A stretch of 41,412 nucleotides of DNA from an uncultured Gemmatimonadales bacterium (GCA_963825055.1 CAWGSK010000023.1:1-41412); one strand, 5' to 3'; shown: positions 13,213 to 41,412, counted from the stretch's first letter. Translations and numbers: made by a program. The notes: generated from the sequence alone by a model not told the origin.

Positions 13213-13225
13213 AGCGTCCAGCTCC

Positions 13226-13301: not shown

Positions 13302-13312
13302 CGGAGGGTTAC

Positions 13313-22738: not shown

Positions 22739-22755
22739 TCGGGAGTCGAAAGCCT

Positions 22756-22870: not shown

Positions 22871-25528
22871 ATGGTGACCGACGCCATTGCCCGGCTCACG
22901 CAGGCCCTTGCTGACCGCTACCTGATCGAGCGTGAGCTCGGCCAGGGTGGCATGGCCACCGTGTACCTCGCGCAGGATGTGAAGCACGACCGCAAGGTCG
23001 CGCTCAAGGTCCTGCGCCCCGAGCTCGCGGCGGTGATCGGCGGCGACCGGTTCCTCCAGGAAATCAAGACCACGGCCAACCTGCAGCACCCGCATATCCT
23101 GCCGCTGCACGACTCGGGCGAGGCGGGAGGCGCGGTCTATTACGTCATGCCGTACGTGGAGGGGGAGTCCCTCCGCGACCGCATCGACCGCGACAAGCAG
23201 CTGCCGGTGGATGAGGCGGTGCGCATTGCACGGGAGGTGGCGGATGCGCTCGACTATGCGCACCGTCACGGCGTGATCCATCGCGACATCAAGCCGGACA
23301 ACATTCTCCTGCACGACGGGCATGTTCTCGTCGCCGACTTCGGCATCGCGCTGGCGGCCAGCCGCTCCGAGGGCGGCACCCGGATGACCGAGACGGGCAT
23401 GAGCCTCGGGACCCCGCACTACATGAGCCCCGAGCAGGCGATGGGGGAGCGGGAGATCCGGGCCTCCAGTGACGTGTACGCGCTGGCCTGCGTGCTGTAC
23501 GAGATGCTGATGGGGGAGCCCCCGTTCACCGGGCCGACGGCACAGGCGATCGTCGCCAAGGTGATGACGGACCATCCGCATCCCATGAGCGTCCATCGCA
23601 GGAGCATCCCGGCGCATGTGGAGAATGCGGTGATGGTGGGGCTGGAGAAGCTCCCCGCCGACCGGTTCGCCTCTGCCGCGGAGTTCGCGGCTGCCCTGGG
23701 CGGCGCCACGACGACCCGGATGGCTGCCGCCGGGATGCCGGCCACCCGGCGGGGGCCCTGGCGCCCGCTGGCCATCGGTGCGCTGCTGGTGGCCGCCGGC
23801 GCACTCACGGTCGCCACGTGGGCCTGGCGCCGCGCGCCGGCAGACGAGCCGGGGGTCATGCGGGTGTCGCTGACGTTTCCGCCGGGCGAGCGGATCCGAT
23901 CCACTTCCACCCGTCGCTTTGCCCTGGCCCCGGATGGTTCCCGGATCGTCTACGTCGGCCAGGACTCGGCGGGCACCCAACTCTGGGTGCGGGAGATGAA
24001 CTCGCTCACCGCACGGCCCCTCCCCGGCACCAATGGGGCGGATGCGCCCTTCTTCTCGCGGGACGGCCAGTCGGTGGGCTTCTTCACCGGCAACCCGGGA
24101 GACCTGCGCATCGTCCCGGTCGCGGGCGGGGTCTCCCGTACCGTGGTCCGCGACTCCGCGGCGCCCTGGGGTGGCGACTGGGCGGATGACGGCATGATCT
24201 ACTTCGTCGGCCCCGACGCCCGCGTGGCGCGCGTTCCGGCCGGCGGCGGAGCCGTCGAGCATCTTGGCGCCCCGGACACCACCCAGGGGTCGGTGGAGTA
24301 CGACTGGCCACAGTATCTGCCGGGCGGGAAACGACTGCTGATCCAGATCTGGCACACGTCGGTTGGTGATGCCGAACTCGGCGTACTCGACCTGGCGACG
24401 GGCGAGGTGGCGCCGCTGTTTCAGGCGGCGTATGGCCGTTACCTCCCGAACGGATATCTCGTGTACACGACGGTGAGCGGTACACTGATGGCGGTGCCGT
24501 TCGATGGAGCGAAGGCGAAGGTGGTGGGGGCGCCCAGGGCCATCGCCGACCTGGTCCAGGTGGATCCGTTCAGCGGGTCGGGCCAGTTCGCCGTCTCGGA
24601 CAACGGCGTACTGGCCTACATGGCCGGTGGTGGTCCCGGCAGCCAGCAGGTCGTGTGGGTCGATCGCGCCGGGACTCAAATACCGGTGGATACGTCATGG
24701 GTGGGACAGTTCGGCACCCTGGCGCTCTCGCCCGATGGCCGCCAGCTGGCCATCACCCAGATCTCCGCTGAGGGCGAACAGGTCTGGGTCAAGCAACTGC
24801 CACGGGGGCCGCTGTCCCGCCTGACGTACGGTGGTGCGGCCAATGTGCGACCCGTGTGGACCCGGGACGGCCGGCGCATCGCCTTCGTCTCCAGCCGGAG
24901 GGGCAACCTCCGGCAGACCTACATTCAGCGGGCGGACGGCAGCGCGGATGCCGATTCCCTCATGGCTGATCCTCGACAGGTTGACCAGGTGGCCTTCACG
25001 CCCGACGGGCAGGGCTTCCTCTACCGGACCGGAAGCAGCGGCACCAACTCGCGGGACATCCACGCCGCCCGGCTCGGCGGCGGTGAGTCGCGCACGATGG
25101 TGGCCGGACCCGCTGACGAGTTTGGCCCCGTGATCTCCCCCAGCGGCCGCTGGTTCGCCTACGTGTCCAATCAGGCCGGGCGGGATGAAGTGTTCGTCCG
25201 GAGCTTCGCCGATCCGGCCGCCGGCCGTACGCAGGTTTCGGTAGATGGCGGCAACGAGCCGCTGTGGGCGCACAACGGACGCGAACTGTTTTTCCGCTCC
25301 CGCCGCGGGGAGATGATGTCCGTGGACGTCACGACAGGCGACACGTTCACCGCCGGGCAGCCCCGCGTCCTCTTCGAAGCGACCAACATGGCCACCGACC
25401 CCTACCACCACGCCTATGACGTGAGCGCCGATGACCGGCGCTTCCTCATGGTGAATCGCGCCATCAATGACGTGGCCGAGCTGGTGGTCGTCGTCAACTG
25501 GTTCAAGGAACTGGAACGACGGCGGTAG
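22871..25528 (+). CDS. Receptor-type Ser/Thr kinase K1 (kinase-TM-TolB/PD40-like beta-propeller)
   Basis: [55 protein letters not shown]; repeated SPDG/SRDG PD40-like blades. Confidence 0.92.
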   Translation: MVTDAIARLTQALADRYLIERELGQGGMATVYLAQDVKHDRKVALKVLRPELAAVIGGDRFLQEIKTTANLQHPHILPLHDSGEAGGAVYYVMPYVEGESLRDRIDRDKQLPVDEAVRIAREVADALDYAHRHGVIHRDIKPDNILLHDGHVLVADFGIALAASRSEGGTRMTETGMSLGTPHYMSPEQAMGEREIRASSDVYALACVLYEMLMGEPPFTGPTAQAIVAKVMTDHPHPMSVHRRSIPAHVENAVMVGLEKLPADRFASAAEFAAALGGATTTRMAAAGMPATRRGPWRPLAIGALLVAAGALTVATWAWRRAPADEPGVMRVSLTFPPGERIRSTSTRRFALAPDGSRIVYVGQDSAGTQLWVREMNSLTARPLPGTNGADAPFFSRDGQSVGFFTGNPGDLRIVPVAGGVSRTVVRDSAAPWGGDWADDGMIYFVGPDARVARVPAGGGAVEHLGAPDTTQGSVEYDWPQYLPGGKRLLIQIWHTSVGDAELGVLDLATGEVAPLFQAAYGRYLPNGYLVYTTVSGTLMAVPFDGAKAKVVGAPRAIADLVQVDPFSGSGQFAVSDNGVLAYMAGGGPGSQQVVWVDRAGTQIPVDTSWVGQFGTLALSPDGRQLAITQISAEGEQVWVKQLPRGPLSRLTYGGAANVRPVWTRDGRRIAFVSSRRGNLRQTYIQRADGSADADSLMADPRQVDQVAFTPDGQGFLYRTGSSGTNSRDIHAARLGGGESRTMVAGPADEFGPVISPSGRWFAYVSNQAGRDEVFVRSFADPAAGRTQVSVDGGNEPLWAHNGRELFFRSRRGEMMSVDVTTGDTFTAGQPRVLFEATNMATDPYHHAYDVSADDRRFLMVNRAINDVAELVVVVNWFKELERRR

Positions 25529-25592
25529 CGTCGGCCTGCCTGCAGCACAGCCGTCCACCCCTGGGCGGCTGACTGGAAACCGGGAGGTAGCA

Positions 25593-27578
25593 TTGTTCAA
25601 CCCGTTGAGGACACTGACCGCCGTCGGCCTGCTCGTGGCCGTCGCCGCGCCGTTGATGGCGCAGGGACTCTACACCTCCGAGCAGGCGGCCCGCGGTCGG
25701 CAGATCTACACGACCTACTGCGTCACCTGCCACGGTGCCGACCTCGAAGGGGGCGTCGCACCGGCGCTTGGCGGCGCGACCTTCCTGCACAAGTGGGGCG
25801 GGGAGAACCGGAGCATCGACGACCTCTACTACGTGCTGCGGACGAACATGCCGCGGCCCGCTGCCGGCTCGCTTACGCCCAAGGCCTACGCGTCGGTCTT
25901 CGCGTACATCCTGGAGCGGAACGGGGTCCAGGCCGGAACCCGCGAGTTCGACGGCTCGCAAGACATGCTGAAGGCCGTCCCGTTCTCCGCCCTGGCGCTC
26001 GCGGCGGGCCCGGCGCCGTCGGTAGCGCCGATGTCCATCGAGGGCGTGCGGCGGAAGCCGCTGGGCAAGGGGCCGGCGCAGTCGGAACTTCTGGCCCCGG
26101 ACGCGGCCGACTGGCTCTACCACACCGGGAACTACGCGGGAACGCGGTATTCCCCGCTGGACCAGATCACCACCGCCAACGTGGGCAGCCTCAAGGTCTC
26201 ATGCGCGCTGCAGGTCGGACCGGTGGAAACGTTTTACAGCGGGCCGATCGTGCACCACGGCATCATGTATCTCACGACCGCCAATACGACGGTGGCGGTG
26301 GATGCCGCGACCTGCCGGGAGCGGTGGCGCTACGAATGGAAGCCGCAGGACGAGATGCTGTGGCCCAACAACCGCGGCGTGGCCGTCAAGGACGGGTACG
26401 TCGTCCGGGGCACGGCCGACGGCTACCTCGTGGCGCTGGACGCCGAGGACGGGGCGCTCCTGTGGGCCCGGCACGTCGCCAGTCCCGGCGAGGGCGAGAC
26501 GATCACCATGCCGCCCATGATCTTCGAAGACCTCGTCCTGATCGGGCCGGCCGGCAGCGAGAACAACATTCAGGGGTGGATCGGCGCCTTCAAGCTGTCA
26601 AGCGGGGAGCCCGTATGGCGCTTCAATACTGTCCCCCGCCCCGGGGAGCCGGGGCGCGAGACCTGGCCCACTACGCCGGGCGTACCCAACGGAGGCGGGG
26701 CCGTCTGGACGCCGCTCTCCCTCGATGCCGCGCGGGGGGAGCTGTATGTCGCCGTGACGAACCCCGCGCCCGACCTGCCGGCGCACCTCCGGCCCGGCGC
26801 CAACCTTTATACCAACGCCGCTGTTGCGCTCGACGTCCGGACGGGCAAGCTCCGCTGGTACGACCAGCTCGTGCCGAGCGACTTCCATGACTGGGACCTG
26901 ACCCAGGTGAGTCCCCTGATCCGGGCCCGTGTGGCTGGAAAGGACCGCGACCTGTTGATCACCTCGGGCAAGGACGGGCTCCTGCACGCGATCGACCGCC
27001 GGACCCGTGAACGGCTCTACCAGGCCGAAGTGACGACCAGACGCAATGTGGATGCGCCGCTCTCGAAGGATCCGGTCGAGGCCTGCCCGGGCCTCCTCGG
27101 TGGCGTCGAGTGGAACGGGCCGGCGTATGATCCCGGGGCCGGACTTCTCATTGTGCCCGCCGTGGACTGGTGCTTCCGCATGGCCCTGATGGATACGGTC
27201 CGCCATGTGCCCGGCGAGATGTACCTGGGCGGCACGTTCGAAGGGGCAGAGCAGAAGCAGGGGTGGCTGACCGCTGTGGATGCCAGGGACGGGAGCATCC
27301 GCTGGCGCTACCGCTCGGAACTCCCCATGACGGCGGCAGTCACCACTACCGCCGGCGGGGTCGCCTTCACCGGCGAGCAGACCGGCGACTTCCTCGCGTT
27401 CGAGTCCGCCACCGGCCGGGAACTGTACCGGTTCCATACTGGCGCCGGGATCTTCGGCGGTGTAGTCACCTACGCGGTGGGGGCCCGCCAGTACGTCGCG
27501 ACCACCTCGGGCGGGGGATCGCTCACCATGGGCGGGGGTGGCGCGCCCATACTGTTCGTGTTCGAACTGCCCCGATGA
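25593..27578 (+). CDS. Periplasmic PQQ-dependent dehydrogenase with N-terminal cytochrome c domain
   Basis: GGAGG RBS before TTG 25593; signal peptide; CVTCH heme motif; RYSPLDQIT, NRG, GGGAVW, NPAP, ALDVRTGKLRW, CPG..GGVEW and ..TGRELY PQQ-propeller motifs. Confidence 0.9.
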   Translation: MFNPLRTLTAVGLLVAVAAPLMAQGLYTSEQAARGRQIYTTYCVTCHGADLEGGVAPALGGATFLHKWGGENRSIDDLYYVLRTNMPRPAAGSLTPKAYASVFAYILERNGVQAGTREFDGSQDMLKAVPFSALALAAGPAPSVAPMSIEGVRRKPLGKGPAQSELLAPDAADWLYHTGNYAGTRYSPLDQITTANVGSLKVSCALQVGPVETFYSGPIVHHGIMYLTTANTTVAVDAATCRERWRYEWKPQDEMLWPNNRGVAVKDGYVVRGTADGYLVALDAEDGALLWARHVASPGEGETITMPPMIFEDLVLIGPAGSENNIQGWIGAFKLSSGEPVWRFNTVPRPGEPGRETWPTTPGVPNGGGAVWTPLSLDAARGELYVAVTNPAPDLPAHLRPGANLYTNAAVALDVRTGKLRWYDQLVPSDFHDWDLTQVSPLIRARVAGKDRDLLITSGKDGLLHAIDRRTRERLYQAEVTTRRNVDAPLSKDPVEACPGLLGGVEWNGPAYDPGAGLLIVPAVDWCFRMALMDTVRHVPGEMYLGGTFEGAEQKQGWLTAVDARDGSIRWRYRSELPMTAAVTTTAGGVAFTGEQTGDFLAFESATGRELYRFHTGAGIFGGVVTYAVGARQYVATTSGGGSLTMGGGGAPILFVFELPR

Positions 27579-30238
27579 CCACGGACGGCCGAAGCCTGGG
27601 CGCGGCGCTGTCGGACCGGTACGCGATCGAGCGGGAGCTCGGGGCGGGGGGCATGGCCACGGTGTACCTCGCCCAGGACCTGAAGCATGACCGCCGCGTG
27701 GCGGTGAAGGTGCTGCGGCCGGAACTGGCGGCGGTGATCGGGGCGGAGCGATTCCTGAGTGAGATCAAGACGACGGCGAACCTGCAGCACCCGCACATCC
27801 TGCCGCTGCACGACTCGGGGGAGGCGGACGGGTTCCTGTTCTACGTGATGCCGTACGTGGAGGGCGAATCACTCCGGGACCGGCTGAGCCGGGAGAAGCA
27901 GCTGCCGGTGGACGAGTCCATCCGGCTGGCGACGGAGGTGGCGGCGGCGCTGGACTATGCGCACCGGCACGGGGTGATCCACCGGGACATCAAGCCGGAG
28001 AACATCCTGCTGCACGATGGCAGCGCGCTGGTGGCGGACTTCGGGATCGCGCTGGCGATGAGCTCGGCGGGCGGGACGCGGATGACGGAGACAGGGATGA
28101 GTCTCGGGACGCCGCACTACATGAGTCCCGAGCAGGCGATGGGGGAGCGGGAGATCACGGCGCGGAGCGACGTGTACGCGCTGGGGGCGGTGACGTACGA
28201 GATGCTGACCGGGGACCCACCGTTCACCGGGAGCACGGCGCAGGCGATCGTGGCGCGGGTGGTGACGGAGAGCCCGCGGTCGATGACGACGCAGCGGCAC
28301 ACGATCCCGCCGCACGTGGAGGCGGCGGTCTTCCAGGCGCTGGAGAAGCTGCCGGCCGACCGGTTTGCCAGCGCGGCGGAGTTTGCCTCAGCACTGGCCA
28401 ACCCGGCGTTAGCGCCGGCGACCACGCGGGCGAGGCCGGCGGCGGTGTCGGGAAGCCGCTGGTCACCGCTCGTGGTGGGCGGCTGGGCCCTGGCCGCCGG
28501 GGCCATCGGCGTGGCGCTCTGGGGCTGGCTCCGTCCCGCGCCCGAACTCCCGGTCCTGCGCTACGAGATGTCGCTGCCTGCCGGCGAGGAAATCGCGGAG
28601 AATGCGCGCGGCAACCACTTTGCGATTTCCCCCGATGGTTCGCGCCTCGTGTACGTCGGTCCCGGGCAGGATGGCCCCCAGCTCTGGATGCGCTCGCGCC
28701 GGCAGCTGCACGCGACTCCGATCTCCGGGACGGATCGCGCCACCATCCCGTTCTTTTCCCCGGACGGATCCCGCGTCGGTTTCGTTCTTGATGGAAACAC
28801 GGAGCTCAAGACCGTGGGGTTCACCGGGGCCCCCCCGATCGTAGCGGTGGATTCCGGCCTTGGCGCCGACGGCGCCACCTGGAGCGCCGACGGATACATC
28901 TACTATGACGGGCTGACGGGTGGAGGCACGACAGGGGTCATGCGGGTCCGCGCCGCCGGTGGCCGCCCGGAGATGGTGACGACGGTGGATACGGCGGGCG
29001 GGGAGATCGACCACTACTGGCCCCAGGCGCTCCCGGACGGGCGCGGTGTGCTCTTCACGATTCAGAAACGTGATACGCGCCAGGCCAGCGACGTCGCAGT
29101 ATTCGATTCCCGGAGTGGCACGTATCACGTCCTGGTCCAGGCTCTCACGGCTCGATATTCGCCAACGGGGCACCTGGTGTATGTGACGGCGGCGGGCGAC
29201 CTGATGGCCGTGCCGTTCGACCTCAAGCATCTCGAGGTCAGCGGGGAACCGTTTGCCCTCGCCAGCGGTGTGGGCGCCCGGCCGTTCGGCGCGGTGGACC
29301 TGGCGCTCTCGGAGAGCGGAACGCTGGTGTACGGGGCGGGAGCCCCGCAGATCGCGCCGGCCGAGGTGGTGTTCGTGAGCCTCGACGGCACCGTTGCACG
29401 GATCGATTCCGGGCTCACGGGGGACTTCCGGACCCTGGCGATTTCGCCAGATGGCCGGCAACTGGCGCTGAGCCGGGTGGATGGGACCGAGCAGCAGATC
29501 TGGGTGAAGCAGCTGCCGGATGGCCCGATCAGCAAGCTCACCTTCGAGGGCACCCTGAACCAGCGGCCTTTCTGGTCGCCCGACGGACAGTACGTGGGGT
29601 ACGTCTCGAACCAGGAGCAGGTGCCGCGGATCTATCGCAAGCGCGCCGACGGCAGTTCGACGGACGAACTGATCGTGCGGACACCGGACCGCCCGGTGCT
29701 TCGGGCCTCCTGGAGCCATGACGGGCGCTGGCTGCTCTATCGGACCAGCCCGAACGACATCTTTGCCCGCGGGCCCGCCCCGGACACGACGACCCTGCCT
29801 CTGCTGGCCACCGACTTCAACGAGATCATGCCCGCGCTCTCGCCCGACGGGCGGTGGCTGGCCTACGGCTCCAACGAGTCCGGGCGGCTGGAGATTTTCG
29901 TCCGACCCTTCCCCGATGTCGCCTCCGCCAAGTGGCAGGTGTCCACAGGGGGTGGATTCTTCCCCCTCTGGTCACCCGACGGCCGCGAGCTGATTTATGG
30001 CGGATTCGACAACATGGTGCGGTCGGTCGAGGTGCTTCCCGGCCGGACGTTCATCACCGGCCGGCGGCAGACGCTCTTCAATGCCGGCGGGTTCGTCCGG
30101 GACCTCGGGTCCTGGGATATTACGCCGGATGGCCGGCGGATGGTCATGATTCGCCAGGGTGTCGGTGGGGAGGGCGCGGGCGTCCTCGTGGTGGTGGAGA
30201 ATTTCACGGCCGAGCTCCTCGCGGGTCGCTCGCCGTGA
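27575..30238 (+). CDS. Receptor-type Ser/Thr kinase K2 (kinase-TM-beta-propeller)
   Basis: ATG overlaps the PQQ gene stop. Full Hanks motifs, TM LVVGGWALAAGAIGVALWGWL, PD40-like repeats. Confidence 0.92.
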   Translation: MTTDGRSLGAALSDRYAIERELGAGGMATVYLAQDLKHDRRVAVKVLRPELAAVIGAERFLSEIKTTANLQHPHILPLHDSGEADGFLFYVMPYVEGESLRDRLSREKQLPVDESIRLATEVAAALDYAHRHGVIHRDIKPENILLHDGSALVADFGIALAMSSAGGTRMTETGMSLGTPHYMSPEQAMGEREITARSDVYALGAVTYEMLTGDPPFTGSTAQAIVARVVTESPRSMTTQRHTIPPHVEAAVFQALEKLPADRFASAAEFASALANPALAPATTRARPAAVSGSRWSPLVVGGWALAAGAIGVALWGWLRPAPELPVLRYEMSLPAGEEIAENARGNHFAISPDGSRLVYVGPGQDGPQLWMRSRRQLHATPISGTDRATIPFFSPDGSRVGFVLDGNTELKTVGFTGAPPIVAVDSGLGADGATWSADGYIYYDGLTGGGTTGVMRVRAAGGRPEMVTTVDTAGGEIDHYWPQALPDGRGVLFTIQKRDTRQASDVAVFDSRSGTYHVLVQALTARYSPTGHLVYVTAAGDLMAVPFDLKHLEVSGEPFALASGVGARPFGAVDLALSESGTLVYGAGAPQIAPAEVVFVSLDGTVARIDSGLTGDFRTLAISPDGRQLALSRVDGTEQQIWVKQLPDGPISKLTFEGTLNQRPFWSPDGQYVGYVSNQEQVPRIYRKRADGSSTDELIVRTPDRPVLRASWSHDGRWLLYRTSPNDIFARGPAPDTTTLPLLATDFNEIMPALSPDGRWLAYGSNESGRLEIFVRPFPDVASAKWQVSTGGGFFPLWSPDGRELIYGGFDNMVRSVEVLPGRTFITGRRQTLFNAGGFVRDLGSWDITPDGRRMVMIRQGVGGEGAGVLVVVENFTAELLAGRSP
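28019..28401 (+). repeat. Direct repeat copy 1 (kinase C-lobe), 382/383 nt identical to 34691-35073
   Basis: Manual alignment shows a single mismatch (G28186 vs A34858). Confidence 0.85.
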
Positions 30239-32940
30239 GCGACCTGTTCCCGCCCGGTGGCGCCCCCGACCGCCTCGGCGCAGCCCTGGCCGGACGCTAC
30301 GCGTTCGAGCGGGAGCTGGGGCAGGGGGGGATGGCCACGGTCTACCTCGCCCAGGACCTGCGGCACGACCGGCGGGTAGCGGTGAAGGTGCTGCGGCCGG
30401 AGCTGGCGGCGGTCATCGGCGCCGAGCGCTTCCTCACCGAGATCAAGACGACGGCCAACCTGCAGCATCCGCACATCCTCCCGCTGCACGATTCCGGCGA
30501 AACGGACGGCTTCCTCTTCTATGTCATGCCCTACGTGGAGGGCGAGTCGCTCCGGGACCGGCTCGACCGGGAGCACCAGCTGCCCGTGGAGGACGCCGTC
30601 CGGCTGGCGACGGAGGTAGCCGGCGCCCTCGACTACGCGCACCGGCACGGGGTGATCCACCGGGACATCAAGCCGGAGAACATCCTGCTGCATGACGGCA
30701 GCGCGCTGGTGGCGGATTTCGGTATCGCGCTGGCTGTGACGACCGCGGGCAAGACGCGGATGACCGAAACCGGCATGAGCCTTGGCACCCCGCACTACAT
30801 GAGTCCCGAGCAGGCGATGGGGGAGCGGGAGATCACCGGCCGGAGCGACGTGTATGCGCTGGGGGCGGTGACCTACGAGATGCTGACCGGCGACCCGCCG
30901 TTCACGGGGAGCACGGCGCAGGCCATCGTGGCGCGGGTGGTGACCGAGACCCCGCGTGGCATGATGGCCCAGCGTCACACGATTCCGCCCCATGTGGAGG
31001 CGGCGGTGATCCGGGCGCTGGAGAAACTGCCGGCCGACCGCTTTGCCAGTCCGGCCCAGTTCGCGGAAGCGCTGGCGAAACCCGGCCTCATGCCGTCGAC
31101 GGCCGCCGGCATGCCGGGCGCGGCCACAACTCCGGCGGCGCGGGGCGCCAGGGTGTGGCAGGGAGTGGCCGGGATCACGCTGCTCCTGCTGGCCACGGTG
31201 GCCGCCTGGAGCTGGCAGACGCTTCGGCACGCCACCGACACCGGTCCGACGCGGCAGTATATCCTGCTCGGCGACAGCCTCCGACTCATGATGGGCTCCC
31301 CCGCGATGGCCCTGTCGCCCGACGGCAATCTCTTTGCCTTCGTGGACAGCCGGCAGAACGGCCGCATCTGGCTCAAGGCGAGGGACCAGCTGGATGCGAG
31401 GCCCCTGGCCGGCACCGAACGGGCGCGGAACCCCGTGTTCTCCCCCGACGGGCAGTGGGTCCTCTTCGTGGCCGACGGTGCCCTCCGGAAGGTTGCGGTA
31501 TCCGGGGGGAGTCCGGTGACGATCGCCGATACGGCGGCGGGAGGCTACGGTGGCGGGGCCTGGCTCGACGACGGCTCGGTCATCTATACCATCCCCAACC
31601 TCAATGAGTGGCGCGAGGCTCCCGCGTCCGGGGGTGCCGGTCGCGTGGTGTTCCGCACGTCGAGCGACACGACGCTGGTCGGCGGCGGGGTGGGGATGCC
31701 CATCGCCCTTCCCGACTCACGGGGGATTCTCTTCCAGTACTGCGCGTCCGGGTGCGTGACCATGAGTGTGCACGTGCTGGACCTCCGGACCGGAAAGCAG
31801 AAGCTGCTCGTGGGCGACGCGGCGCAGGCCTGGTACCTGCCCGGCGGGCGACTGCTGTACGTCCGAAGCGACGGCGTGGCCATGGTGGCGCCGTTCGACC
31901 TGGATGCGCTGGCCATTACCGGGGAGGCCGTGCCGGTGCTCGAAGGAGTCGAGGCCCGCACCCTCTTCGGCTACGCCCAGCTGGCCTGGTCGCCCGCCGG
32001 CCCACTGGCCTATGTGCGCAGTTCGGCCACCGCAGGTGGCAATACGGTCGTCCGGGTGGCGCGTGACGGAACGGTCATGCCCATCGACACCGGGTGGTAT
32101 GGCAGCTTCAATTCCCTCGCACTGTCACCGGATGGACGCCGGCTCGCCGTGGGTACCGGAGCCGCGGGAAATCTGAACATCTGGATCAAGCAACTGGACC
32201 GCGGGCCATTCGCCCGTCTCACCTTTGGCAACGCCGACCGTCGCCCCGCCTGGTCCCCCGACGGCCGTCGCGTGGCGTTCCTGCGTGACAGTGCGGGGAA
32301 CACGGGCGTCTATACCCGGCCGGTGGACGGCAGCGGGGGAGACCGGTTCGTGGGCCGGCTCGAGCAGCAGGTGCAGGAAGTGGCCTGGACGCGGGACGGG
32401 CGCTGGCTCGTGGTCCGTACCGACAACCTTACTGCGGGCGCCGGCGACGTCTTCGGCATTCCGGCCACCGGCGACTCGACGCCTGTTCCCCTGGTGACGA
32501 GCCGGTTCACCGAAATCGAGCCCACCCCGTCGCCGGACGGCCGGTGGCTGGCCTACACCTCGGATGAGTCAGGCGGCCGGGAGGTCTATGTCCGGCCGTT
32601 TCCGAACACCACGGCCGGCCGCTGGCAGGTCTCCAACGGTGGGGGGAGCCAGCCGCGATGGTCCCCCGACGGGAAAGAACTGTTCTACCGGAGGCCCGAC
32701 GGATGGCTCATAGCGGCGCGGCTGGCGGGTGGTGACGCATTCTTCATCGACGAACTCCAGGGCCTGTTCGACACCTCTCCATACTTTTGGGACAGTTTTC
32801 ACCAGTCGTACGATGTCGGGCCGGACGGACGGTCCTTCGTGTTCATGAGCCTGCGCCGGGACAACGGCGGGCAGAGCGATGTCCACATCGTATGGGTGGA
32901 CCACTGGCTGCAGGACCTGAAGGAACGGCTGGAGCCGTGA
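30235..32940 (+). CDS. Receptor-type Ser/Thr kinase K3 (kinase-TM-beta-propeller)
   Basis: GTG overlaps the K2 stop. Full Hanks motifs, TM VWQGVAGITLLLLATVAAWSW, PD40-like repeats. Confidence 0.92.
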   Translation: MSDLFPPGGAPDRLGAALAGRYAFERELGQGGMATVYLAQDLRHDRRVAVKVLRPELAAVIGAERFLTEIKTTANLQHPHILPLHDSGETDGFLFYVMPYVEGESLRDRLDREHQLPVEDAVRLATEVAGALDYAHRHGVIHRDIKPENILLHDGSALVADFGIALAVTTAGKTRMTETGMSLGTPHYMSPEQAMGEREITGRSDVYALGAVTYEMLTGDPPFTGSTAQAIVARVVTETPRGMMAQRHTIPPHVEAAVIRALEKLPADRFASPAQFAEALAKPGLMPSTAAGMPGAATTPAARGARVWQGVAGITLLLLATVAAWSWQTLRHATDTGPTRQYILLGDSLRLMMGSPAMALSPDGNLFAFVDSRQNGRIWLKARDQLDARPLAGTERARNPVFSPDGQWVLFVADGALRKVAVSGGSPVTIADTAAGGYGGGAWLDDGSVIYTIPNLNEWREAPASGGAGRVVFRTSSDTTLVGGGVGMPIALPDSRGILFQYCASGCVTMSVHVLDLRTGKQKLLVGDAAQAWYLPGGRLLYVRSDGVAMVAPFDLDALAITGEAVPVLEGVEARTLFGYAQLAWSPAGPLAYVRSSATAGGNTVVRVARDGTVMPIDTGWYGSFNSLALSPDGRRLAVGTGAAGNLNIWIKQLDRGPFARLTFGNADRRPAWSPDGRRVAFLRDSAGNTGVYTRPVDGSGGDRFVGRLEQQVQEVAWTRDGRWLVVRTDNLTAGAGDVFGIPATGDSTPVPLVTSRFTEIEPTPSPDGRWLAYTSDESGGREVYVRPFPNTTAGRWQVSNGGGSQPRWSPDGKELFYRRPDGWLIAARLAGGDAFFIDELQGLFDTSPYFWDSFHQSYDVGPDGRSFVFMSLRRDNGGQSDVHIVWVDHWLQDLKERLEP

Positions 32941-34256
32941 TGGCCGGCATGCCCTCGCGGATGCGGCGCCAACGCCCCATCCTGGCCCTCCTGGCCCTCG
33001 TACTCCGGGCGTACCCGCTCCCGGCGCAAGGCATGCCTCCGGCCGATCCGGCCTCTCTGGGATTCTCGGCTGCGAGGCTGGCGCGTGTCGACAGCGTCGT
33101 GCAGCGGTACGTCGATTCCGGCCGGGCGGCCGGGGTTGTCGTGCTGGTCACCCGGCATGGCAGGATCGCGTACCGGCGGGCGTTCGGCTTCGCGGACCGT
33201 GAGGCCGGCCGCCGCATGACTATGGATGCCCTGTTCCGCATCGCGTCGCAGACCAAGGCCGTCACCAGCGTAGCCGCGATGATGCTCGTGGAGGAGGGGA
33301 AGCTGACGCTCAACGATCCGGTGAGCCGATACATCCCGACCTTCGCCAGCACCTCGGTCATGGTGGAGAACGACTCGGGATCGGTGGTCGTTCCCGCCAC
33401 GCGCCCGATCACGATTCGCGACCTGCTGACCCACACCGCGGGCATCTCCTACGGAACGGACCGGCTCGTGGCCGGGCAGTATCGGGACAGCGGGCTGGGC
33501 CCGGCGGCGGGGTGGGGCTGGTATACCGCCGACAAGGACGAACCCATCTGTACCACGATGGAGCGGTTGGGAACCCTGCCGTTCGTTGCCCAGCCCGGGA
33601 GCCGGTGGGTCTACGGCTACTCCCTGGATGTGCTCGGCTGCGTGATCGAACGGGTCTCCGGCACCCCGCTCGACCAGTTCTTCCGGACGCGGATCTTCCA
33701 GCAACTCGGGATGCGGGATACCTGGTTCTATCCTCCCGCGAGCGAGGCGAGCCGTCTGGCCACAGTCTACGCCGCCGGCGACAGCGGACTCCGGCGCGCC
33801 CCGCCGGGCCCCCGTGGCCAGGGCGACTACCTGGCCGGACCGCGAAAGAGCTTTGCCGGGGGGGCGGGACTGGTCTCGACCGCGACCGACTATGCCCGTT
33901 TTCTCCAGATGCTCCTGAATGGCGGCACGCTGGACGGCATCCGTGTGCTCAGTCCGGCCACGGTGCGGCTGATGACGACGAACCAGGTCGCCGATTCTGT
34001 CTACGGTGGGTCGGCGGGCGGATTCGGGCTCGGGTTCGAGATCGTGGAGGATCCTGGTCTGGCGGGCGCATACGGCCCGGCCGGCCGGTATGGCTGGGGG
34101 GGGGCGTACGGCACCAGCTACTGGGTCGACCCCCGCAATGAGCTGGTCGCCCTGTTCATGGTGCAGTTGCTGCCGAGGGGCGACTTCGACCTGGCCGGAA
34201 AGTTCCCGGCCCTGGTGTATCAGGCGATCGTGGAGCCGGGGACGGCCGCGCCATGA
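32940..34256 (+). CDS. Secreted serine hydrolase (beta-lactamase/class C-like family)
   Basis: FRIASQTK (SxxK), LLTHTAG, WVYGYS, GGAGLVST and GWGGAYGT motifs; N-terminal signal-like segment. Start overlaps the K3 stop (32937 or 32940). Confidence 0.9.
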   Translation: MAGMPSRMRRQRPILALLALVLRAYPLPAQGMPPADPASLGFSAARLARVDSVVQRYVDSGRAAGVVVLVTRHGRIAYRRAFGFADREAGRRMTMDALFRIASQTKAVTSVAAMMLVEEGKLTLNDPVSRYIPTFASTSVMVENDSGSVVVPATRPITIRDLLTHTAGISYGTDRLVAGQYRDSGLGPAAGWGWYTADKDEPICTTMERLGTLPFVAQPGSRWVYGYSLDVLGCVIERVSGTPLDQFFRTRIFQQLGMRDTWFYPPASEASRLATVYAAGDSGLRRAPPGPRGQGDYLAGPRKSFAGGAGLVSTATDYARFLQMLLNGGTLDGIRVLSPATVRLMTTNQVADSVYGGSAGGFGLGFEIVEDPGLAGAYGPAGRYGWGGAYGTSYWVDPRNELVALFMVQLLPRGDFDLAGKFPALVYQAIVEPGTAAP

Positions 34257-36910
34257 CCTTCGAACGGCTCAGCGCCAGTCTCGCCGACCGCTACGCGATC
34301 GAGCGGGAGCTTGGGGCGGGGGGCATGGCGACGGTGTACCTCGCGCAGGACCTGAAGCATGACCGCCGTGTGGCGGTGAAGGTGCTGCGGCCCGAGCTGG
34401 CGGCGGTGATCGGGGCCGAGCGGTTCCTGAGTGAGATCAAGACGACGGCCAACCTGCAGCACCCGCATATCCTGCCGCTGCACGACTCGGGCGAAGCCGA
34501 TGGCTTCCTCTTCTATGTCATGCCGTATGTGGAGGGGGAGTCCCTGCGCGACCGGCTGACCCGGGAGAAGCAGCTGCCGGTGGACGAGTCCATCCGGCTG
34601 GCCACGGAAGTGGCGGCGGCGCTGGACTACGCCCACCGGCACGGAGTGATCCACCGGGACATCAAGCCGGAGAACATCCTGCTGCACGACGGCAGCGCGC
34701 TGGTGGCGGACTTCGGGATCGCGCTGGCGATGAGCTCGGCGGGCGGGACGCGGATGACGGAGACAGGGATGAGTCTCGGGACGCCGCACTACATGAGTCC
34801 CGAGCAGGCGATGGGGGAGCGGGAGATCACGGCGCGGAGCGACGTGTACGCGCTGGGAGCGGTGACGTACGAGATGCTGACCGGGGACCCACCGTTCACC
34901 GGGAGCACGGCGCAGGCGATCGTGGCGCGGGTGGTGACGGAGAGCCCGCGGTCGATGACGACGCAGCGGCACACGATCCCGCCGCACGTGGAGGCGGCGG
35001 TCTTCCAGGCGCTGGAGAAGCTGCCGGCCGACCGGTTTGCCAGCGCGGCGGAGTTTGCCTCAGCACTGGCCAATCCGGGCGCAACCAGCCGACGTGTGGC
35101 GGAGGCCGCCGGCTCGCCGCAGGGAGCGGGGAGCCGGTGGCGTTTCCTCTGGCCGGCCGCGGTTGTCCTGCTGACGCTGGCCGCGCTCTGGGGGTGGTTC
35201 CGCCCTGCGGCCGCCCCGGTGCCCGGTCGCCAGCGTGTGATGCTCTGGAACTTCCCGTTCCCGGATTTTCTCATCCCCAGCTCGCCCCGTATCGAAGCCC
35301 GGGCGGCCATCTCCCCCAACGGGGCGTATATCGTCTTCGCCGACTCCTCCGGCGACGACACGCAACTCTTCCTCAAGGCGCGCAATGAAACCACCGCCAC
35401 GCCGATTCCCGGGACGGAGGGCGCGGCGGGGCCCTTTTTCTCGCCCGATGGTGAATGGATCGGATACTTCGCCCACGGCGGGAGTGTCCGGAAGGTCCGG
35501 GTTTCCGGGGGCGGGTCCATCAAGCTCTCCGCGGCCGGGAATGAGACCTACACCGTCGGCACCTGGCTTGATGACGGCACCATCGTCTTCGTCGACGCGG
35601 CCGGGGCGATGTCGCGGATTCCCAGTTCGGGCGGGGACGTCGCGGTCCTGCGCCCGGCCGATCTCGCCCACCGCGATGACGTGTCCACCCTGTCGCCCCT
35701 GCCCCGGAGTCGCGGGGTACTCTTCACCGGCTGTCCGGGCAACTGCGCGAGCGGATCCTCGATCTACGCCTTCGACATCGTACACGATACGACGCTCCTC
35801 CTCCTCCCGGACGCCACGGGAGGGTGGTACTCGCCGACCGGCCACCTGCTCTACACCAGCCGGGAAGGGGGGCTCTACGCCGTCGGATTCGACCTGGACC
35901 ACCTGGCGGTTACCTCCGGTCCTGTGTCCGTGGCGGACGGGGTGGCACCGGCGGGCTTCGCCATGTCAGCCTCCGGTCTGGCTTTGCTGACGCTCGGGAC
36001 CCAGGACCTGAACCAGTCCACGCTCGTCTGGGTCTCGCGGGATGGCACGGAGGAGCCCTACGCCCCCGACTGGACGGGACAGTTCGAGTATCCCGCGCTG
36101 TCGCCCGACGGTCGGAGCATCGCCGTCAGCGTACGTGAGGGGGTGACGCAGCTCTGGGTCCGCCGGGCGGACGGGTCCCGGCTCCGGATCTCGCGGGGGG
36201 ACCTCGGCAGCTGGCGGCCATCGTGGACGGCGGATGGAAACGGCTTCGCCTTCACCACCACCAACACCGCCTCCAGTGCGGCGGGCGCCAATGACGTGTA
36301 CGAAAGTCCGCTCGATGCCAGCACGCCGCCGCGCCTGCTGCTCGACCTGCCGGTGGGGATCTGGGAGATCGAATTCAGCCGTGATGGTGCCTGGATGGTG
36401 GTGCGGACGGATGACAAGTCGTCGGTGGGCGTGTTCTACGCCCGGCAGCTGCGGGGTGATACCACGCTGTCCATGATCTACTCGGACAGCAGCTTCAATA
36501 CACAGCTGGCGCTTTCGCCTGACAGCCGCTGGCTGGCGTTCACGTCCGACCGCTCGGGGCGGTCCGAGGTGTACGTGGCGTCGTTTCCCGGGATGCAGGT
36601 CAAGTACCCCGTCTCGCAGGGGGGCGGGACCGAACCCCGGTGGTCGCACAGCGGGCGTGAGCTGTTCTTCAAGAGCCGGGGAAAACTGATGAGCCTTCCG
36701 GTCACTCCCGGGGCCGGGTTTGCCCCCGGAAGCGCCCGCGCGCTCTTCTCTGTCCGGAGCTACGCGAACGCCGTCAACCGGCCCCAGTATGACGTCGGGC
36801 CCGATGACCGGCGCTTCGTGATGATCCGGCGGCCGGAACGTTCGGGTCGTGAGGATGTCGTCCTGGTGGAAAATTTCTTTGCCGACCTCGCGGCCAGGGT
36901 GAAGCAGTGA
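34253..36910 (+). CDS. Receptor-type Ser/Thr kinase K4 (kinase-TM-beta-propeller)
   Basis: ATGA overlap. Kinase domain differs from K2 by about one residue. [23 protein letters not shown]40-like repeats. Confidence 0.92.
34691..35073 (+). repeat. Direct repeat copy 2 (kinase C-lobe), near-identical to 28019-28401
   Basis: Manual alignment, offset 6672 nt, one mismatch. Confidence 0.85.
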
Positions 36911-37302
36911 GTAATGCCCCCGAGCGCCTGCGCGCGGCCCTCACTGACCGTTACCGGATCGAGCGCGAGCTCGGGCAGGGCGGAATGGCCGCCGTCTATC
37001 TCGCCCAGGACCTGAAGCACGACCGCAAGGTCGCGCTCAAGGTCCTGAGGCCGGAACTTGCGGCCGTCCTCGGCGCGAACGTGTCGGCCTCGTCCGGGCT
37101 CACGATCGGACCGGCGCAGGAGCTGTTCGTAGACACGACCTACCTGCGCGCCCCCAGCTACCGGGGGTATGACGTGGCCCGTGACGACCGCTCGTTCATC
37201 ATGCTCCGCGTGATTCCCGAGACCGATACCGGGCCGACAGGGGATCTGATATTCGTGGACAACTGGTTTACGGAACTCAGCCGGAAGGGAGCGAAGCCGT
37301 GA
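36907..37302 (+). pseudogene. Internally deleted receptor kinase paralog (kinase N-terminus fused in frame to the last propeller blade)
   Basis: aa 1-57 are kinase subdomains I-II ([17 protein letters not shown]...[13 protein letters not shown]). aa 58-131 are the C-terminal tail ([13 protein letters not shown]...[11 protein letters not shown]), as in the intact paralogs. Confidence 0.85.
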
Positions 37303-39968
37303 GCCGCCTCTCCGAAGCCCTGGCCGACCGGTACACCATCGAACGCGAACTGGGCGCGGGCGGGATGGCCACGGTTTACCTGGCGCACGACCTCCGCCAC
37401 GACCGGCAGGTGGCCATCAAGGTGTTGCGACCCGAGCTCGCCGCCGTGATCGGCGCCGAGCGATTCCTGTCCGAGATCAAGACCACGGCCAACCTGCAGC
37501 ACCCGCACATCCTCCCCCTCTTCGACTCGGGGGAGGCGGACGGCCAGGTCTTCTACGTGATGCCCTATGTGGAGGGCGAGAGTATCCGCGACCTGCTCGC
37601 GCGCGAGCGACAGCTTCCCGTGGAGGACGCGGTCCGCATCGCCACCCAGGTGGCGCAGGCACTCGACTACGCGCATCGCCACGGCGTCGTGCACCGGGAC
37701 ATCAAGCCCGAAAACATCATGCTGCATGACGGCAGCGCGGTCGTCGCCGACTTCGGCATCGCGCTGGCTGTGAGCCGGTCCGACGGCGGCACCCGGATGA
37801 CCGAGACCGGCATGTCGCTCGGGACCCCGCACTACATGGCCCCGGAACAGGCGATGGGTGAGCGCGAGATCACGGCCCGGAGCGACGTGTACGCGCTGGG
37901 TTGCGTCCTGTATGAAATGCTGGCAGGTGAGCCGCCGTTCACCGGGCCAACGGCGCAGGCGATCATTGCGCGGGTCGTGACGGAGGAACCCCGTTCCCTG
38001 ACCGTCCAGCGGAAGACCGTGCCCCCCAACGTGGCGGCGGCTGTCGTGCGTGCGCTGCAGAAGCTTCCCGCGGACCGCTTCGCGACGGCGGCGCAATTTG
38101 CCGAGGCGCTGAACCGGCCGGGCTACGCCACGGAAACCCTCGAAGCGACTGCCACCATGGCGGCATCGCGGCGGGGTCGACGGCAGACCGTCCTGCGGAT
38201 GGCTCCCTGGGGGCTGGCCGCCATCCTGGCGGGCCTCGCGGCGTGGGTCTGGCTTCGGTCCCGGCCCGAGCCCCCGGTCAGCTGGCAGTACATCTCGGTC
38301 GGGGACACGCTGTCCCCGACGGTCACGGGTCCGTCGCTCGCCCTGGCGCCGGATGGCCGGAGCCTCGTGTTCAAGGACGAACGGCAGAACGGGCTGCTGT
38401 GGCTCAAGCGATGGGACCGGCTCGATCCCGTGCCGATTCCGGGGACGGAGCGCGCCAATGCCCCGGCGTTTTCTCCTGACGGCAGCTGGGTGGCGTTCCT
38501 GGCGGACGGTCGGCTCAAGAAGGTCCGTTCTGAGGGTGGTGGCGCGATGACCCTGGCTGATACGGCTACGACGGTCCCCGCGGGCGGATACAAGTTCGCA
38601 TGGCTGGACGACGGCACCCTGATCTATCCCGCCGCGCGCCAGGATCAGTTGCTGCGTGTCAGTGCGAACGGCGGCCAGAGCACGGTGGTCCTGGCGGACT
38701 CCGCCCTGCGCGGGTTCGGCCTGCTCAACCTGGAACCCCTGCCGGGGGCGCGCGGCGTCCTGTTCACACCCTGCATTTCGGGGTGCGTGACCATCGGGCT
38801 TCATGTCCTCGATCTGCGCACCGGGACCCAGAAACTGCTGCTGGCCAATATTGTGAGCGGATGGTACCTGCCCGACGGATATCTGATGTACGCGACCCGC
38901 GCCGGGACAATCTTCGGCGCGAAGTTCGACCTCGACAAGCTGGAGATCACCGGTCCCGCGATACCGCTGCTCGAAGATGTGAGGGTGACTGCGGGGAATG
39001 CCTTCCTGGCCTGGTCATCCAGCGGGAACCTTGTCTACCTCCGGGGCAGGGGGGTCACGACGGACCTCGAGGTGGTGCGGGTCAGCCGGATGGGCGTGCC
39101 GACCATCGTCGACAGCAGCTGGACGGGCGGGTTCAACTCGTTCGCGCTCTCGCCGGACGGCCGGCGTCTGGCGGTCGGGACCGGCCTGACGGCCGGGGGC
39201 CTCAGCATCTGGCTCAAGCAACTCGACCGGGGCACCTTCGGCCGGCTGAGCTTCGGGGGGCAGGACCGCCGTCCGGTCTGGTCCCCCGACGGCAGGCAGG
39301 TCGCATTCATCCGGGACAGCACGGCGGGCGGCAACGTGTTCGTCCGCGCGGCAGATGGAAGCGGCGGCGACCGCCTCCTTGGACACCTGGACCGGCAGAT
39401 TCAGGAAGTGGAGTGGTCGCCCGACGGCCGGTGGCTGGTGGTGCGGACCGACAACGGGACCGCCGGCGCGGGCGACCTGGTCGGCATCCCGCTGTCCGGA
39501 GATACCGCGGCGGTGCCACTCGTCGCCAGTCCGTTCACCGAACTCCATCCCGCCGTGTCCCCGGACGGAGCCTGGCTGGCGTACGTCTCGAACGAATCCG
39601 GGGAAAATGAGGTATATGTCCGTTCCTTCCCGCAGACCGCCGGCGGACGGTGGCAGGTCTCCAATGGCGGGGGGTCGCAACCGCGATGGTCATCCAGCGG
39701 GAAGGAACTGTTCTACGTGGACGTCACGGGCAGGCTGGTATCCGCGCATGTCCAGACCAGGCCGGTATTCCAGGTCACCGGCCTTGAATCACTCTTTTCC
39801 GTGACCGATTTCCTGCTGGACGACTTTCACCAGTCCTACGCGGTCACGCCCGACGGAACCGGATTCTACTTCCTGCGGCGGGCGCGCACGGAGCGCGGCG
39901 CCGAGTCCGACCGCGTCGTGCTCGTGGAGCACTGGTTCTCCGACGTGGCCAAACGGATGGAGCAGTGA
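37299..39968 (+). CDS. Receptor-type Ser/Thr kinase K5 (kinase-TM-beta-propeller)
   Basis: GTGA overlap. Full Hanks motifs, [22 protein letters not shown]40-like repeats. Confidence 0.92.
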
Positions 39969-41320
39969 ACCAGACCTCCGGTCTCGACCGCGCCATCGGG
40001 CCCTGGGCGCTCGGCGCCAACGCCGTGAACCTGACGGTCGGCGCCGGGATATTCGCCCTGCCGGCCGTCGTGGCAGCCATTCTCGGCCCGGCGGCCCTCC
40101 TGGCGTACCTGATCTGCGGCGCGCTGATTCTGCTCGTGCTGACCTGCTTCGCCGAGGTCGGCAGCCAGGTGACACGGAGCGGCGGTGTCGTGGCCTATGT
40201 TGAAGAGGCATTCGGCCCGATGGCCGGCTTCCTCGCCTGGGCCGTCTTCGCCATCGGTTTCTCGATGGCTGCGGATGCCGCCATCGCCCATGTGCTCCTC
40301 GACGCGGTCGCCGTCGGCATACCGGTCCTGGCGCGACCCCTTCCGAGGGCCCTGGGCCTCCTGGTCCTCTTTGGCGGGCTGGCAGCCGTCAACATCCGCG
40401 GCGTGCGCCAGGGCACCCGGGTGTCCGTCGTCACGACCGTGGCCAAGCTGGTGCCGCTGCTGCTGCTCGTGGCGGTCGGCATGTTCGCGATTCGATGGTC
40501 GAATCTCACCTGGTCTGGCTGGCCGTCGGGCAAGGAACTCGGCACCGCAGCCCTGGTGCTCTTCTTCGCGTTTGCCGGAGCGGAAAGCGCCCTGACGCCG
40601 AGTGGAGAGATCCGCGATCCGGGCCGGACGGTACCGCGCGGAATGCTGGGAGCCGTGGGCGCGATCGTGTTGCTCTACGTGGCTCTGCAGCTGACCGCCC
40701 AGGGCGTACTCGGGAACGACCTCGCGACCGGCGGAAACGCACCGTTGCTCGCCGTTGCCCAGTCCCTCGCCGGCGGAGCGGGGCGAGCGGTCATTGCGGC
40801 CTGTACGGCTATCGCGGTGTTCGGCGCCCTGGCGGCAGACATGATCGGCACGCCACGGGCGTTCCTCGCTGCCGCGGAGGCCGGCACCCTGCCCGCGGTG
40901 CTCCGGAAGATCCATCCGCGTTTCCATACGCCCTGGGTCTCGATCGCCGCCTTCGCCGGGCTGACCTTCGTGGTGGCAGTGAGTGGCAGCTTCCGGACGC
41001 TGGCCGTGCTGGGGAGCCTCGCGCTGTTGCTGGTCTATCTGGCCGTCTGCCTTGCCGCGCTCCGGATCCGCTATACCCGGCCCCACGCCCCCGGGACGTT
41101 CCGCGCACCCGGCGGCCCGACCGTCGCGCTGCTGGCGTCGGGCGCAGTGGTGTGGGTCCTGGCGCACTCCACCCGGCGCGAGTCCATCGCCATGGCGGTG
41201 TTCATCGGGGTGGCCACCCTGTATTACATCATCCGGACGCGGTTCCTGCCTTTGGCGCTCGCAACGGTCCCGGCGGGTTCTCCCGACGACGCAGCCGACC
41301 TCTCCAGGGGGAAGATGTGA
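39965..41320 (+). CDS. APC family amino acid permease
   Basis: VGAGIFALP, CFAEVGS...SGG, FAFAGAE, GEIRDP and IHPRFHTP motifs; about 12 TM segments. Confidence 0.92.
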   Translation: MNQTSGLDRAIGPWALGANAVNLTVGAGIFALPAVVAAILGPAALLAYLICGALILLVLTCFAEVGSQVTRSGGVVAYVEEAFGPMAGFLAWAVFAIGFSMAADAAIAHVLLDAVAVGIPVLARPLPRALGLLVLFGGLAAVNIRGVRQGTRVSVVTTVAKLVPLLLLVAVGMFAIRWSNLTWSGWPSGKELGTAALVLFFAFAGAESALTPSGEIRDPGRTVPRGMLGAVGAIVLLYVALQLTAQGVLGNDLATGGNAPLLAVAQSLAGGAGRAVIAACTAIAVFGALAADMIGTPRAFLAAAEAGTLPAVLRKIHPRFHTPWVSIAAFAGLTFVVAVSGSFRTLAVLGSLALLLVYLAVCLAALRIRYTRPHAPGTFRAPGGPTVALLASGAVVWVLAHSTRRESIAMAVFIGVATLYYIIRTRFLPLALATVPAGSPDDAADLSRGKM

Positions 41321-41412
41321 TGGAACCCGTAGCCCGCCTCGGCGCGGCCCTCTCGGACCGCTACATGATCGAGAGGGAGCTCGGGGCGGGGGGCATGGCC
41401 ACCGTGTACCTC
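41320..41412 (+). CDS. Start of a further array kinase K6 (truncated by window edge)
   Basis: ATG overlaps the permease stop. Translates as [31 protein letters not shown], the same N-terminus as K1-K5. Confidence 0.85.
   Translation, partial: MEPVARLGAALSDRYMIERELGAGGMATVYL

Follow-up and report, generated by a model that had tools for sequence, protein, structure and literature searches.

Introduction

PknD of Mycobacterium tuberculosis is a kinase for which an extracellular six-bladed propeller sensor has been described (PMC2877116). In the Planctomycetota and the myxobacteria, expanded membrane Ser/Thr kinases with periplasmic WD40 or TPR domains have been reported (PMC11032199, citing Perez et al. 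2008), and the species-specific kinase clades were read there as "duplication and/or recombination", with some neighbouring duplicates in the myxobacteria. It has also been reported that Ca. Solibacter usitatus (Acidobacteria) holds expanded Ser/Thr kinase paralogues without positive selection (PMC3174227). [quoted passage not shown] That is to say, the protein architecture, the lineage-specific expansion and "duplication and/or recombination" are already known from the available passages of the bacterial studies (PMC11032199, PMC2877116, PMC3174227). Same-species clades of bacterial kinase domains are usually taken as recent duplication. The subject of the present analysis is a 41,412-nt stretch of DNA from an uncultured Gemmatimonadales bacterium (GCA_963825055.1 CAWGSK010000023.1:1-41412; hereafter the window), which from position 22871 to its end carries an array of receptor-type kinase genes (K1 to K6), each intact copy with a sensor behind a predicted membrane helix. 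Judging from sequence comparison, the kinase halves have likely been copied between neighbours by homologous recombination, and each sensor belongs to an old type that is conserved from one species to another and is under purifying selection.

Evidence for Exchange of the Kinase Halves

The five intact genes all lie on the + strand, namely K1 (22871..25528, 885 aa; a Hanks-type kinase, a transmembrane (TM) helix and a double PD40/Tricorn_N-type propeller), K2 (27575..30238, 887 aa), K3 (30235..32940, 901 aa), K4 (34253..36910, 885 aa) and K5 (37299..39968, 889 aa). In all 10 pairs of K1–K5 the kinases are 76–99% identical in amino acids versus 34–54% for the post-TM regions, so that the strong divergence of the latter, as claimed in the first-pass annotation, is borne out. 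The kinases of K2 and K4 are 99% identical and their sensors 34%, and in K3 the kinase is closest to K2/K4 (89–90%) and the sensor to K5 (54%). The kinases of K2, K3 and K4 form a supported clade (99/90), on sensors that are 34–41% alike.

At the DNA level, a tract of 793 nt (27614..28406 in K2 and 34286..35078 in K4, both on the + strand) is 95.7% identical between the two genes and stops at the kinase/linker boundary; 34 of its 793 nt differ, and 32 of these 34 are at third codon positions. Three pairs from three genomes have a kinase synonymous divergence (dS) of 0.20, 0.043 and 0.060, and the sensor dS is above 1 in each. The closest pairs are those of G020 and L037, with a kinase dS of 0.043 and 0.060 and sensors that are 34% and 48% identical, and these two come from a 9-contig genome (G020) and a 3.2-Mb contig (L037). 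In all three pairs the DNA identity drops from 90–100% to about 50% at about codon 270. Since the identity is shared at synonymous sites too, it points to exchange of DNA and not to protein constraint alone.

The same pattern was found in the comparison of genomes with several copies. For 23 of 37 proteins the closest kinase belonged to their own genome, and for 8 of 37 the closest sensor did so; in three genomes added afterwards, the numbers were 12 of 24 and 1 of 24, and the pooled numbers are 35 of 61 and 9 of 61. On the kinase tree the genome labels are clustered (22 changes versus 30.1 after shuffling, with 0 of 200 shuffles as low), and a tree that keeps the six K4-type proteins together, with a log-likelihood lower by 213.6, is rejected by the approximately unbiased (AU) test (p 1.5e-65). 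In addition, 39 homologues with a sensor at least 65% identical to that of K4 carry 20 activation-loop variants, and their kinase identity is 67–98% (median 73%). Same-genome likeness, likeness at synonymous sites and tract boundaries, the marks of concerted evolution, were thus found in the kinase half only. The kinase called constant in the first-pass annotation is so within a genome and not across genomes, and DNA exchange explains this pattern best.

Sensor Types and Their Conservation

The 50 intact proteins compared fall into 22 sensor clusters at less than 46% identity. On the sensor tree (a quick tree of 42 rows, that is, 46 minus 4 near-duplicate copies of G016), each of K1–K5 groups with proteins of other genomes, and the genome labels are unclustered (30 changes versus 30.2 after shuffling, 110 of 200 as low). 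The sensor type of K4 is found in other records at 66–91% identity with many kinase variants, and its closest matches come from Gemmatimonadales records; that of K5 is widespread in the order at 50–60% identity. The dN/dS of the K4-type sensor is 0.11–0.27 (six orthologues, 15 pairs; Nei–Gojobori method, with dS near saturation). In a comparison between species, the conservation of a given sensor type roughly equals that of the kinase (K4 versus L031: sensor 80%, kinase 81% identical). On these grounds and on the dN/dS values, fast-evolving sensors were rejected, and an arms-race-like diversification of the ectodomains is not supported. The idea of a diversified receptor repertoire holds for distinct sensors on very similar kinases and not for a rapid diversification of the ectodomains. 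As for diversity-generating retroelements, no reverse transcriptase was found among the window's open reading frames (ORFs) scanned, the genome itself being outside this search, and the long repeats listed, from 20 of 47 repeat families, are kinase halves.

When the variable residues are mapped on the propeller, the variation between types is concentrated on one face, as proposed before: the d-a and b-c loops vary most, with an identity of 0.18 versus 0.47, a contrast that is partly generic for PD40 repeats. In summary, the evolutionary part of the interpretation, i.e., old sensors with exchanged kinase halves, is well supported by the sequence comparisons and very probably correct.

Architecture of the Receptors

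The kinase half of K1–K5 matches Pkinase with E values of 1e-48 to 1e-52, and PD40 matches were found in each protein. All five carry GxGGM, VA[LVI]K, HRDIKP, DFG and [SA]PEQ, i.e., the motifs of a Hanks-type RD Ser/Thr kinase, from which kinase activity is predicted; the shared HRDIKP and activation segment noted at first are present in each intact copy. The closest solved kinase structure is PknB (E 2e-57). The proteins do not belong to the Stk1/PknB PASTA kinases (NF033483), which K1 and K4 match with 306 and 311 bits (cut-off 450) in the kinase part only, and no PASTA domain was matched by Pfam in any of the five. As for anti-phage kinases, the scores are 184–188 bits for MAD6 (cut-off 460) and 88–89 for PglW (cut-off 990), and the matches to the PADLOC PD-T4-6 profile are confined to the kinase half, short of full-length membership; PADLOC gave no match in the sensor or in the three interspersed genes.

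One hydrophobic stretch of 19 residues directly follows the kinase in each of K1–K5 (Kyte–Doolittle 1.66–1.98), with the peak at about residues 298–325 and basic residues preceding it in 5/5, which corresponds to a single-TM layout. In K4 the predicted helix is at 35144..35200 (+ strand, residues 298–316; hydropathy only). These calls come from simple hydropathy, and in K5 a propeller strand scores slightly higher (1.72). CxxxC pairs are present in the sensors of K3, K4 and K5 only (3/5), which fits an oxidising compartment. Based on the domain order and these pairs, it is likely that the kinase is cytoplasmic and the sensor periplasmic.

The post-TM part of K4 was modelled by AlphaFold2 from an alignment of 118 sequences (predicted local distance difference test, pLDDT, 90.4; predicted template modelling score, pTM, 0.86). 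The model has 12 four-stranded blades and a C-terminal helix, and the sensor is thereby predicted to be a nested pair of six-bladed propellers. Model residues 266–546 (35999..36841, + strand) form the distal TolB-like six-bladed propeller, nested in the membrane-proximal one and carrying type-specific pocket residues; it fits TolB-like propellers with Z 26.7, 24.9 and 24.1 (root-mean-square deviation, rmsd, 2.8–3.0 A; 247–255 residues aligned). The proximal propeller is made of the N-terminal part and the last strands, and matches the PknD sensor with Z 19.8 (rmsd 3.1 A, 238 aligned, range 9–564). With this nested layout, both ends of the sensor would likely lie near the membrane and the TolB-like ring away from it. 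Pfam domains, hydropathy and fold model all agree with the kinase-TM-propeller architecture seen at first.

The sensor sequence matches TolB chains at E about 1e-6, its homologues carry PF26549 (Tricorn_N) and PD40, and its closest ESM Atlas clusters are mostly Acidobacteriota. Membership of the TolB family (TIGR02800) was rejected, because K1 and K4 score 98 and 67 bits (cut-off 343) and the propeller part alone matches. The proteins are not tricorn proteases either: they end after the propellers, and no peptidase was matched in K1–K5 or in 120 listed homologues. Tricorn protease is also not among the structure matches listed for the whole sensor or the distal propeller, which does not exclude a tricorn likeness. 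Foldseek with the whole sensor returned only generic double propellers (best TM score 0.33, rmsd above 15 A). A single six-bladed sensor of the M. tuberculosis PknD type does not describe the model, which has 12 blades in two propellers.

Organisation of the Array in the Window

The window is the entire contig C23 of the genome G000 (3.53 Mb, 35 contigs, 87% complete, 6% contamination), and the runs that contain its DNA are soil metagenomes, with no RNA run among those listed. From 22871 to the contig end there are ten genes, all on the + strand, in the order K1, cytochrome c–pyrroloquinoline quinone (PQQ) dehydrogenase-family gene, K2, K3, PF00144 hydrolase, K4, remnant, K5, APC permease and the start of K6. 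The five intact 885–901-aa copies, the remnant and the edge-cut copy on one strand, as described by the first-pass annotation, were recovered. The co-oriented row of kinases described there is real; the three non-kinase genes among the copies, about 4.7 kb of 18.5 kb, had been missed and rule out a pure kinase tandem. Start and stop codons overlap at 8 of the 9 gene junctions, even across the remnant, and the ninth is a 64-nt gap.

The remnant (36907..37302, 131 aa) is an in-frame deletion with both start/stop overlaps intact, in which about 57 aa of a kinase N-lobe run, with the fusion point near 37077, into the C-terminal ~73 aa of yet another sensor type (45% identity to a G016 protein, E 2e-16). 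K6 (41320..41412) comprises the first 31 codons of another kinase and is cut by the contig end, so that the right end of the array lies beyond the contig; no continuation was found at any contig end of G000. Among the interspersed genes, the dehydrogenase-family gene (25593..27578, 661 aa) has a signal-peptide-like N-terminus, a cytochrome c part (CxxCH) and a PQQ-dehydrogenase-family propeller, and is below all NCBIfam cut-offs. The PF00144 serine hydrolase (32937..34256) has a signal-peptide-like start and is far below the class C beta-lactamase cut-offs. The third is the APC amino-acid permease (39965..41320), assigned by Pfam scan.

A sigma-70 promoter scan was uninformative (1 site versus 1.4 expected), and 13 terminator-like sites were found versus 5.0 in shuffles, all weak and all within genes. 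Just upstream of K1, the ORF at 22157-22738 (+) has a signal-peptide-like start, with no Pfam, NCBIfam or PADLOC match and no homologue in the relatives' arrays compared. Between it and K1, at 22755-22803, there is a short tandem run of about five copies of the unit GGAGTCGT. Outside the array, a separate kinase-TPR gene of 1079 aa (9313-12552, +) follows a pyrimidine-nucleoside phosphorylase gene.

Arrays in Related Genomes

Of 41 related genomes, 30 gave matches to the K4 sensor, with as many as 19 in one genome. In a survey of 121 genomes from the whole phylum, the K5 sensor was matched in 63, which belong almost entirely to the same order; the counts of the K5 survey are lower bounds, since 11 candidates were scored per genome. 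The number of sensor matches per genome goes from none found to about 20, and 5689 of 8000 scored candidates belong to the family, which is large and occurs in an abundant and little-studied soil phylum. Comparable arrays are found throughout the Gemmatimonadales. That of G057 (10 contigs; C3:312000-406000, L058–L062) holds over 20 kinase genes and, at about 95 kb, is the longest; that of G070 (4 contigs) extends over about 30 kb. As the first-pass annotation foresaw, array content varies: gene order, passenger genes and copy number differ between genomes.

G000 itself has 46 kinase-matching ORFs, 3 PP2C matches and 5 FHA matches in three places. A sixth family copy (C11:154754-157742, L052) has a frameshift at the TM region and is a pseudogene or a sequence error. 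At C12:12354-21016 (L053) there are two kinases with the same head type and a different, PD40/DPPIV_N-like sensor, adjoining a histidine kinase, a response regulator and a receiver-Pkinase fusion. Contigs C5 and C29 carry an identical 907-residue kinase ORF, possibly a duplicated or contaminating stretch. In G016, the contigs C6, C2 and C16 (L011–L017) hold three near-identical array versions with sensors 97–100% alike, probably strain haplotypes, and the C6 version has many frameshifts.

Neighbouring Genes

Neighbours were defined as genes within two places of a kinase-propeller gene, from codon-usage script calls and a Pfam scan, and the background as the genes at the one-third and two-thirds points of six long contigs; neighbour classes were sorted by hand, 7 of 79 rows being merged as duplicates, and in the held-out set 22 of 23 neighbours were scanned. 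Peptidases and amino-acid or peptide transporters made up 12 of 72 neighbours in the first set versus 9 of 127 background genes (p 0.053), an enrichment that did not recur in the held-out set (1 of 22), the pooled figure being 13 of 94 (p 0.11). All three close orthologues found for the permease (61–69%) lie inside kinase arrays, in two families. The one close orthologue of the dehydrogenase (59%, G012) is on a contig without a listed array, and of the hydrolase's five listed relatives one is at the edge of the G016 array.

Parts of toxin-antitoxin systems accounted for 12 of the 72 neighbours in the first set and for 4 of the 22 in the held-out set, versus 1 of 127 in the background. PIN genes within arrays depend on the lineage (3 of 8 in G057 and 3 of 6 in G027; 0 of 5 in G070, 0 of 5 in G065, 0 of 2 in G025 and 0 of 3 in G026), and G000 has no PIN match. 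Some kinase genes have a VapBC-like antitoxin-PIN pair immediately upstream in the same orientation, and the pair often overlaps the start of the kinase gene (L027:5817-7232; L029:2017-2669 and 8070-8717; L037:11729-12432; L058:9579-10243 and 12829-13463; L061:1613-2339). Such pairs might protect the arrays from being deleted, or the arrays might simply serve them as places of insertion. PP2C phosphatases occur inside the arrays of G020, G026 and L037, and the three of G000 are elsewhere. DinB-family genes recur beside arrays (L018, L021, L031 and L054; 4 of 72 neighbours versus 0 of 127), as do multicopper oxidases (L039, L053 and L064), and at L030:7652-14036 (G025) two kinase-propeller genes flank a cyanophycinase/cyanophycin synthetase cluster.

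Proposed Mechanism and Alternative Explanations

It is proposed that periplasmic sensors of old type, with kinase heads swapped by recombination, converge on a similar phosphorylation output; taken as a whole, this interpretation is somewhat probable. The intact kinase motifs and the domain order are observed. The kinase would lie in the cytoplasm, and the predicted 12-bladed nested propeller outside, with the TolB-like propeller distal. Each sensor type would bind its own fixed ligand, most likely a periplasmic peptide or protein segment, and the site would presumably be the pocket on the narrow face of the distal propeller, the face that TolB uses to bind its partners. In K4 the predicted pocket includes the model residues Y296, W337, R338, W387, E388, E390 and R479. 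In favour of such a site, the pocket positions (on strand a) of the distal propeller are more type-specific than random ones (0.344 versus 0.214, p 0.0004; proximal ring p 0.016). Following the established biology of PknB and PknD, ligand binding may cluster the receptors, whose activation-loop threonines would be trans-phosphorylated, and a small shared set of substrates would then be phosphorylated. The kinase DNA, 75–95% alike between copies, would recombine, which homogenises the heads, re-pairs sensors and deletes copies such as that of the remnant, and this step is strongly supported; the sensor DNA, about 50% alike, would be too diverged for exchange, and unrelated genes would drift in and out between the copies. 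The convergence on shared substrates would follow from recombination keeping the heads alike. The shared output and the peptide-like ligand are inferred.

Several observations weigh against this interpretation. Kinase subtypes about 70% identical coexist in one array, so several outputs are possible, and for only 35 of the 61 proteins does the closest kinase come from their own genome. In its 3' part the K2/K4 tract has 1 mismatch in about 385 nt, possibly through assembler polishing, and among the public-run contigs listed none bridges the kinase-to-linker joint of K4. The compared genomes are kin, so that the p values overstate the evidence. Type-specific residues are not enriched in the top-face loops overall (19/145 versus 12/128, p 0.35); and the test of the pocket positions was post hoc, its strand-a positions being taken from the strand register without coordinates and picked after the K4-type list had been seen.

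A stronger form of the proposal, a plug-and-play library of at least 22 ancient sensor types with their own pockets on a TolB-like propeller, continually re-fitted with the current head of the genome, cross-activating (newly acquired sensors included) and feeding one phospho-output, is possible though doubtful. In superintegrons, toxin-antitoxin cassettes guard against deletion, and by analogy those inside some arrays would guard them in such a library. It is unlikely that homogenisation is a neutral by-product of the tandem layout, with receptors separately wired or partly redundant and an array without joint function. DNA similarity alone would suffice for such recombination, several kinase subtypes persist side by side, order and passengers vary among genomes, and broken copies are common (the remnant and the frameshifted copy on C11). 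However, one sensor type tolerates 20 loop variants, which implies that the heads are functionally interchangeable; the many kinase-matching ORFs of G000, set against its few PP2C and FHA matches, fit convergence, and the start/stop overlaps are kept at nearly all junctions, the remnant included. An immune-like repertoire, in which the sensors recognise proteins of phages, predators or competitors and are driven to diversify by an arms race, would be in line with the toxin-antitoxin genes beside arrays in some relatives, the wide range of copy number and the PD-T4-6 matches of the kinase halves; it is distinctly unlikely, as purifying selection has conserved the sensor types over genera and families, the PADLOC matches are kinase-only with MAD6 and PglW far below cut-off, no PIN gene is matched in G000, and those of G070, G065, G025 and G026 all lie outside arrays.

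That the receptors specifically report the supply of peptides and amino acids, and share their regulation with the peptidases and transporters beside them, is very improbable: the array context of the permease orthologues, the first neighbour set and the Tricorn_N-type propellers speak for it, but the enrichment disappeared in the held-out set, and the close relatives of the dehydrogenase and hydrolase are mostly away from known arrays. Finally, the completeness and contamination of G000, the strain variants present in the runs and the contig end within a kinase would be compatible with a metagenome assembly artefact behind the array or the K2/K4 likeness. Against this, contigs of public runs span 7 of the 9 gene junctions among the pieces listed (all except K1–dehydrogenase and permease–K6), although study P1, among the studies of the bridging runs, may be the window's own source; the remnant fusion is spanned by a 364-nt contig of run X1, and run X5, of a second study, spans K3–hydrolase and hydrolase–K4 with 31 and 23 differing letters. 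The independent record P0001, a 63-kb contig, repeats the K4 pairing (kinase 98% and sensor 91% identical), and arrays are present in genomes of 4–10 contigs. Assembly collapse, which the first reading had named as a hazard, is ruled out by these findings, and an artefact of any kind is extremely improbable.

Comparison with Known Systems

Tandem arrays of this architecture with exchanged kinase halves were not found in the literature searched, from which subscription journals were mostly absent; supplements lay outside the search, and those of PMC11032199 and PMC2877116 list domain architectures, which may include a kinase-TM-propeller one. Both passages on "kinase" in the part of PMC10581226 that was available are unrelated to such arrays.

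The array proteins resemble M. tuberculosis PknB and PknD in the kinase-TM-outer-sensor layout, with PknB as the closest solved kinase and the PknD sensor structure fitting the proximal propeller. They differ in the absence of PASTA, in a sensor of two nested propellers with 12 PD40-type blades and not 6, in the diderm host, and in the many tandem copies with exchanged kinase halves. TolB and the tricorn N-terminal propellers are similar in sequence matches (TolB), fold (Z 24–27) and Pfam Tricorn_N; unlike them, the array proteins have neither the TolB N-terminal domain nor a protease domain, and are fused to a kinase. With the acidobacterial paralogues they share the expanded kinase family, and their sensor's ESM Atlas clusters point to the same phylum; the passages available of PMC3174227 describe no sensor domain, tandem arrays or gene conversion. 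The plant clusters, as far as the available part of PMC6368629 describes them, are an analogy only, since exchange in the array affects only the kinase half, among paralogues that are very old, with sensors under purifying selection.

The conserved sensor types with a predicted pocket are concrete targets for finding the sensed ligands, and with the naturally swapped heads "many sensors, one output" can be put to a direct test. A further likeness is to the kinases of Planctomycetota and myxobacteria, which, in the passages of PMC11032199 available, also have a cytoplasmic Pkinase, a single TM and periplasmic propeller repeats. The tree in those passages is of the kinase domain alone, and they do not mention Gemmatimonadota, PD40 or gene conversion. 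In contrast to that study, the sensor tree of the array shows same-genome kinase clades on old, unrelated sensors. As the clades of the array would be new heads on old sensors, trees made from kinase domains only would misdate such expansions.

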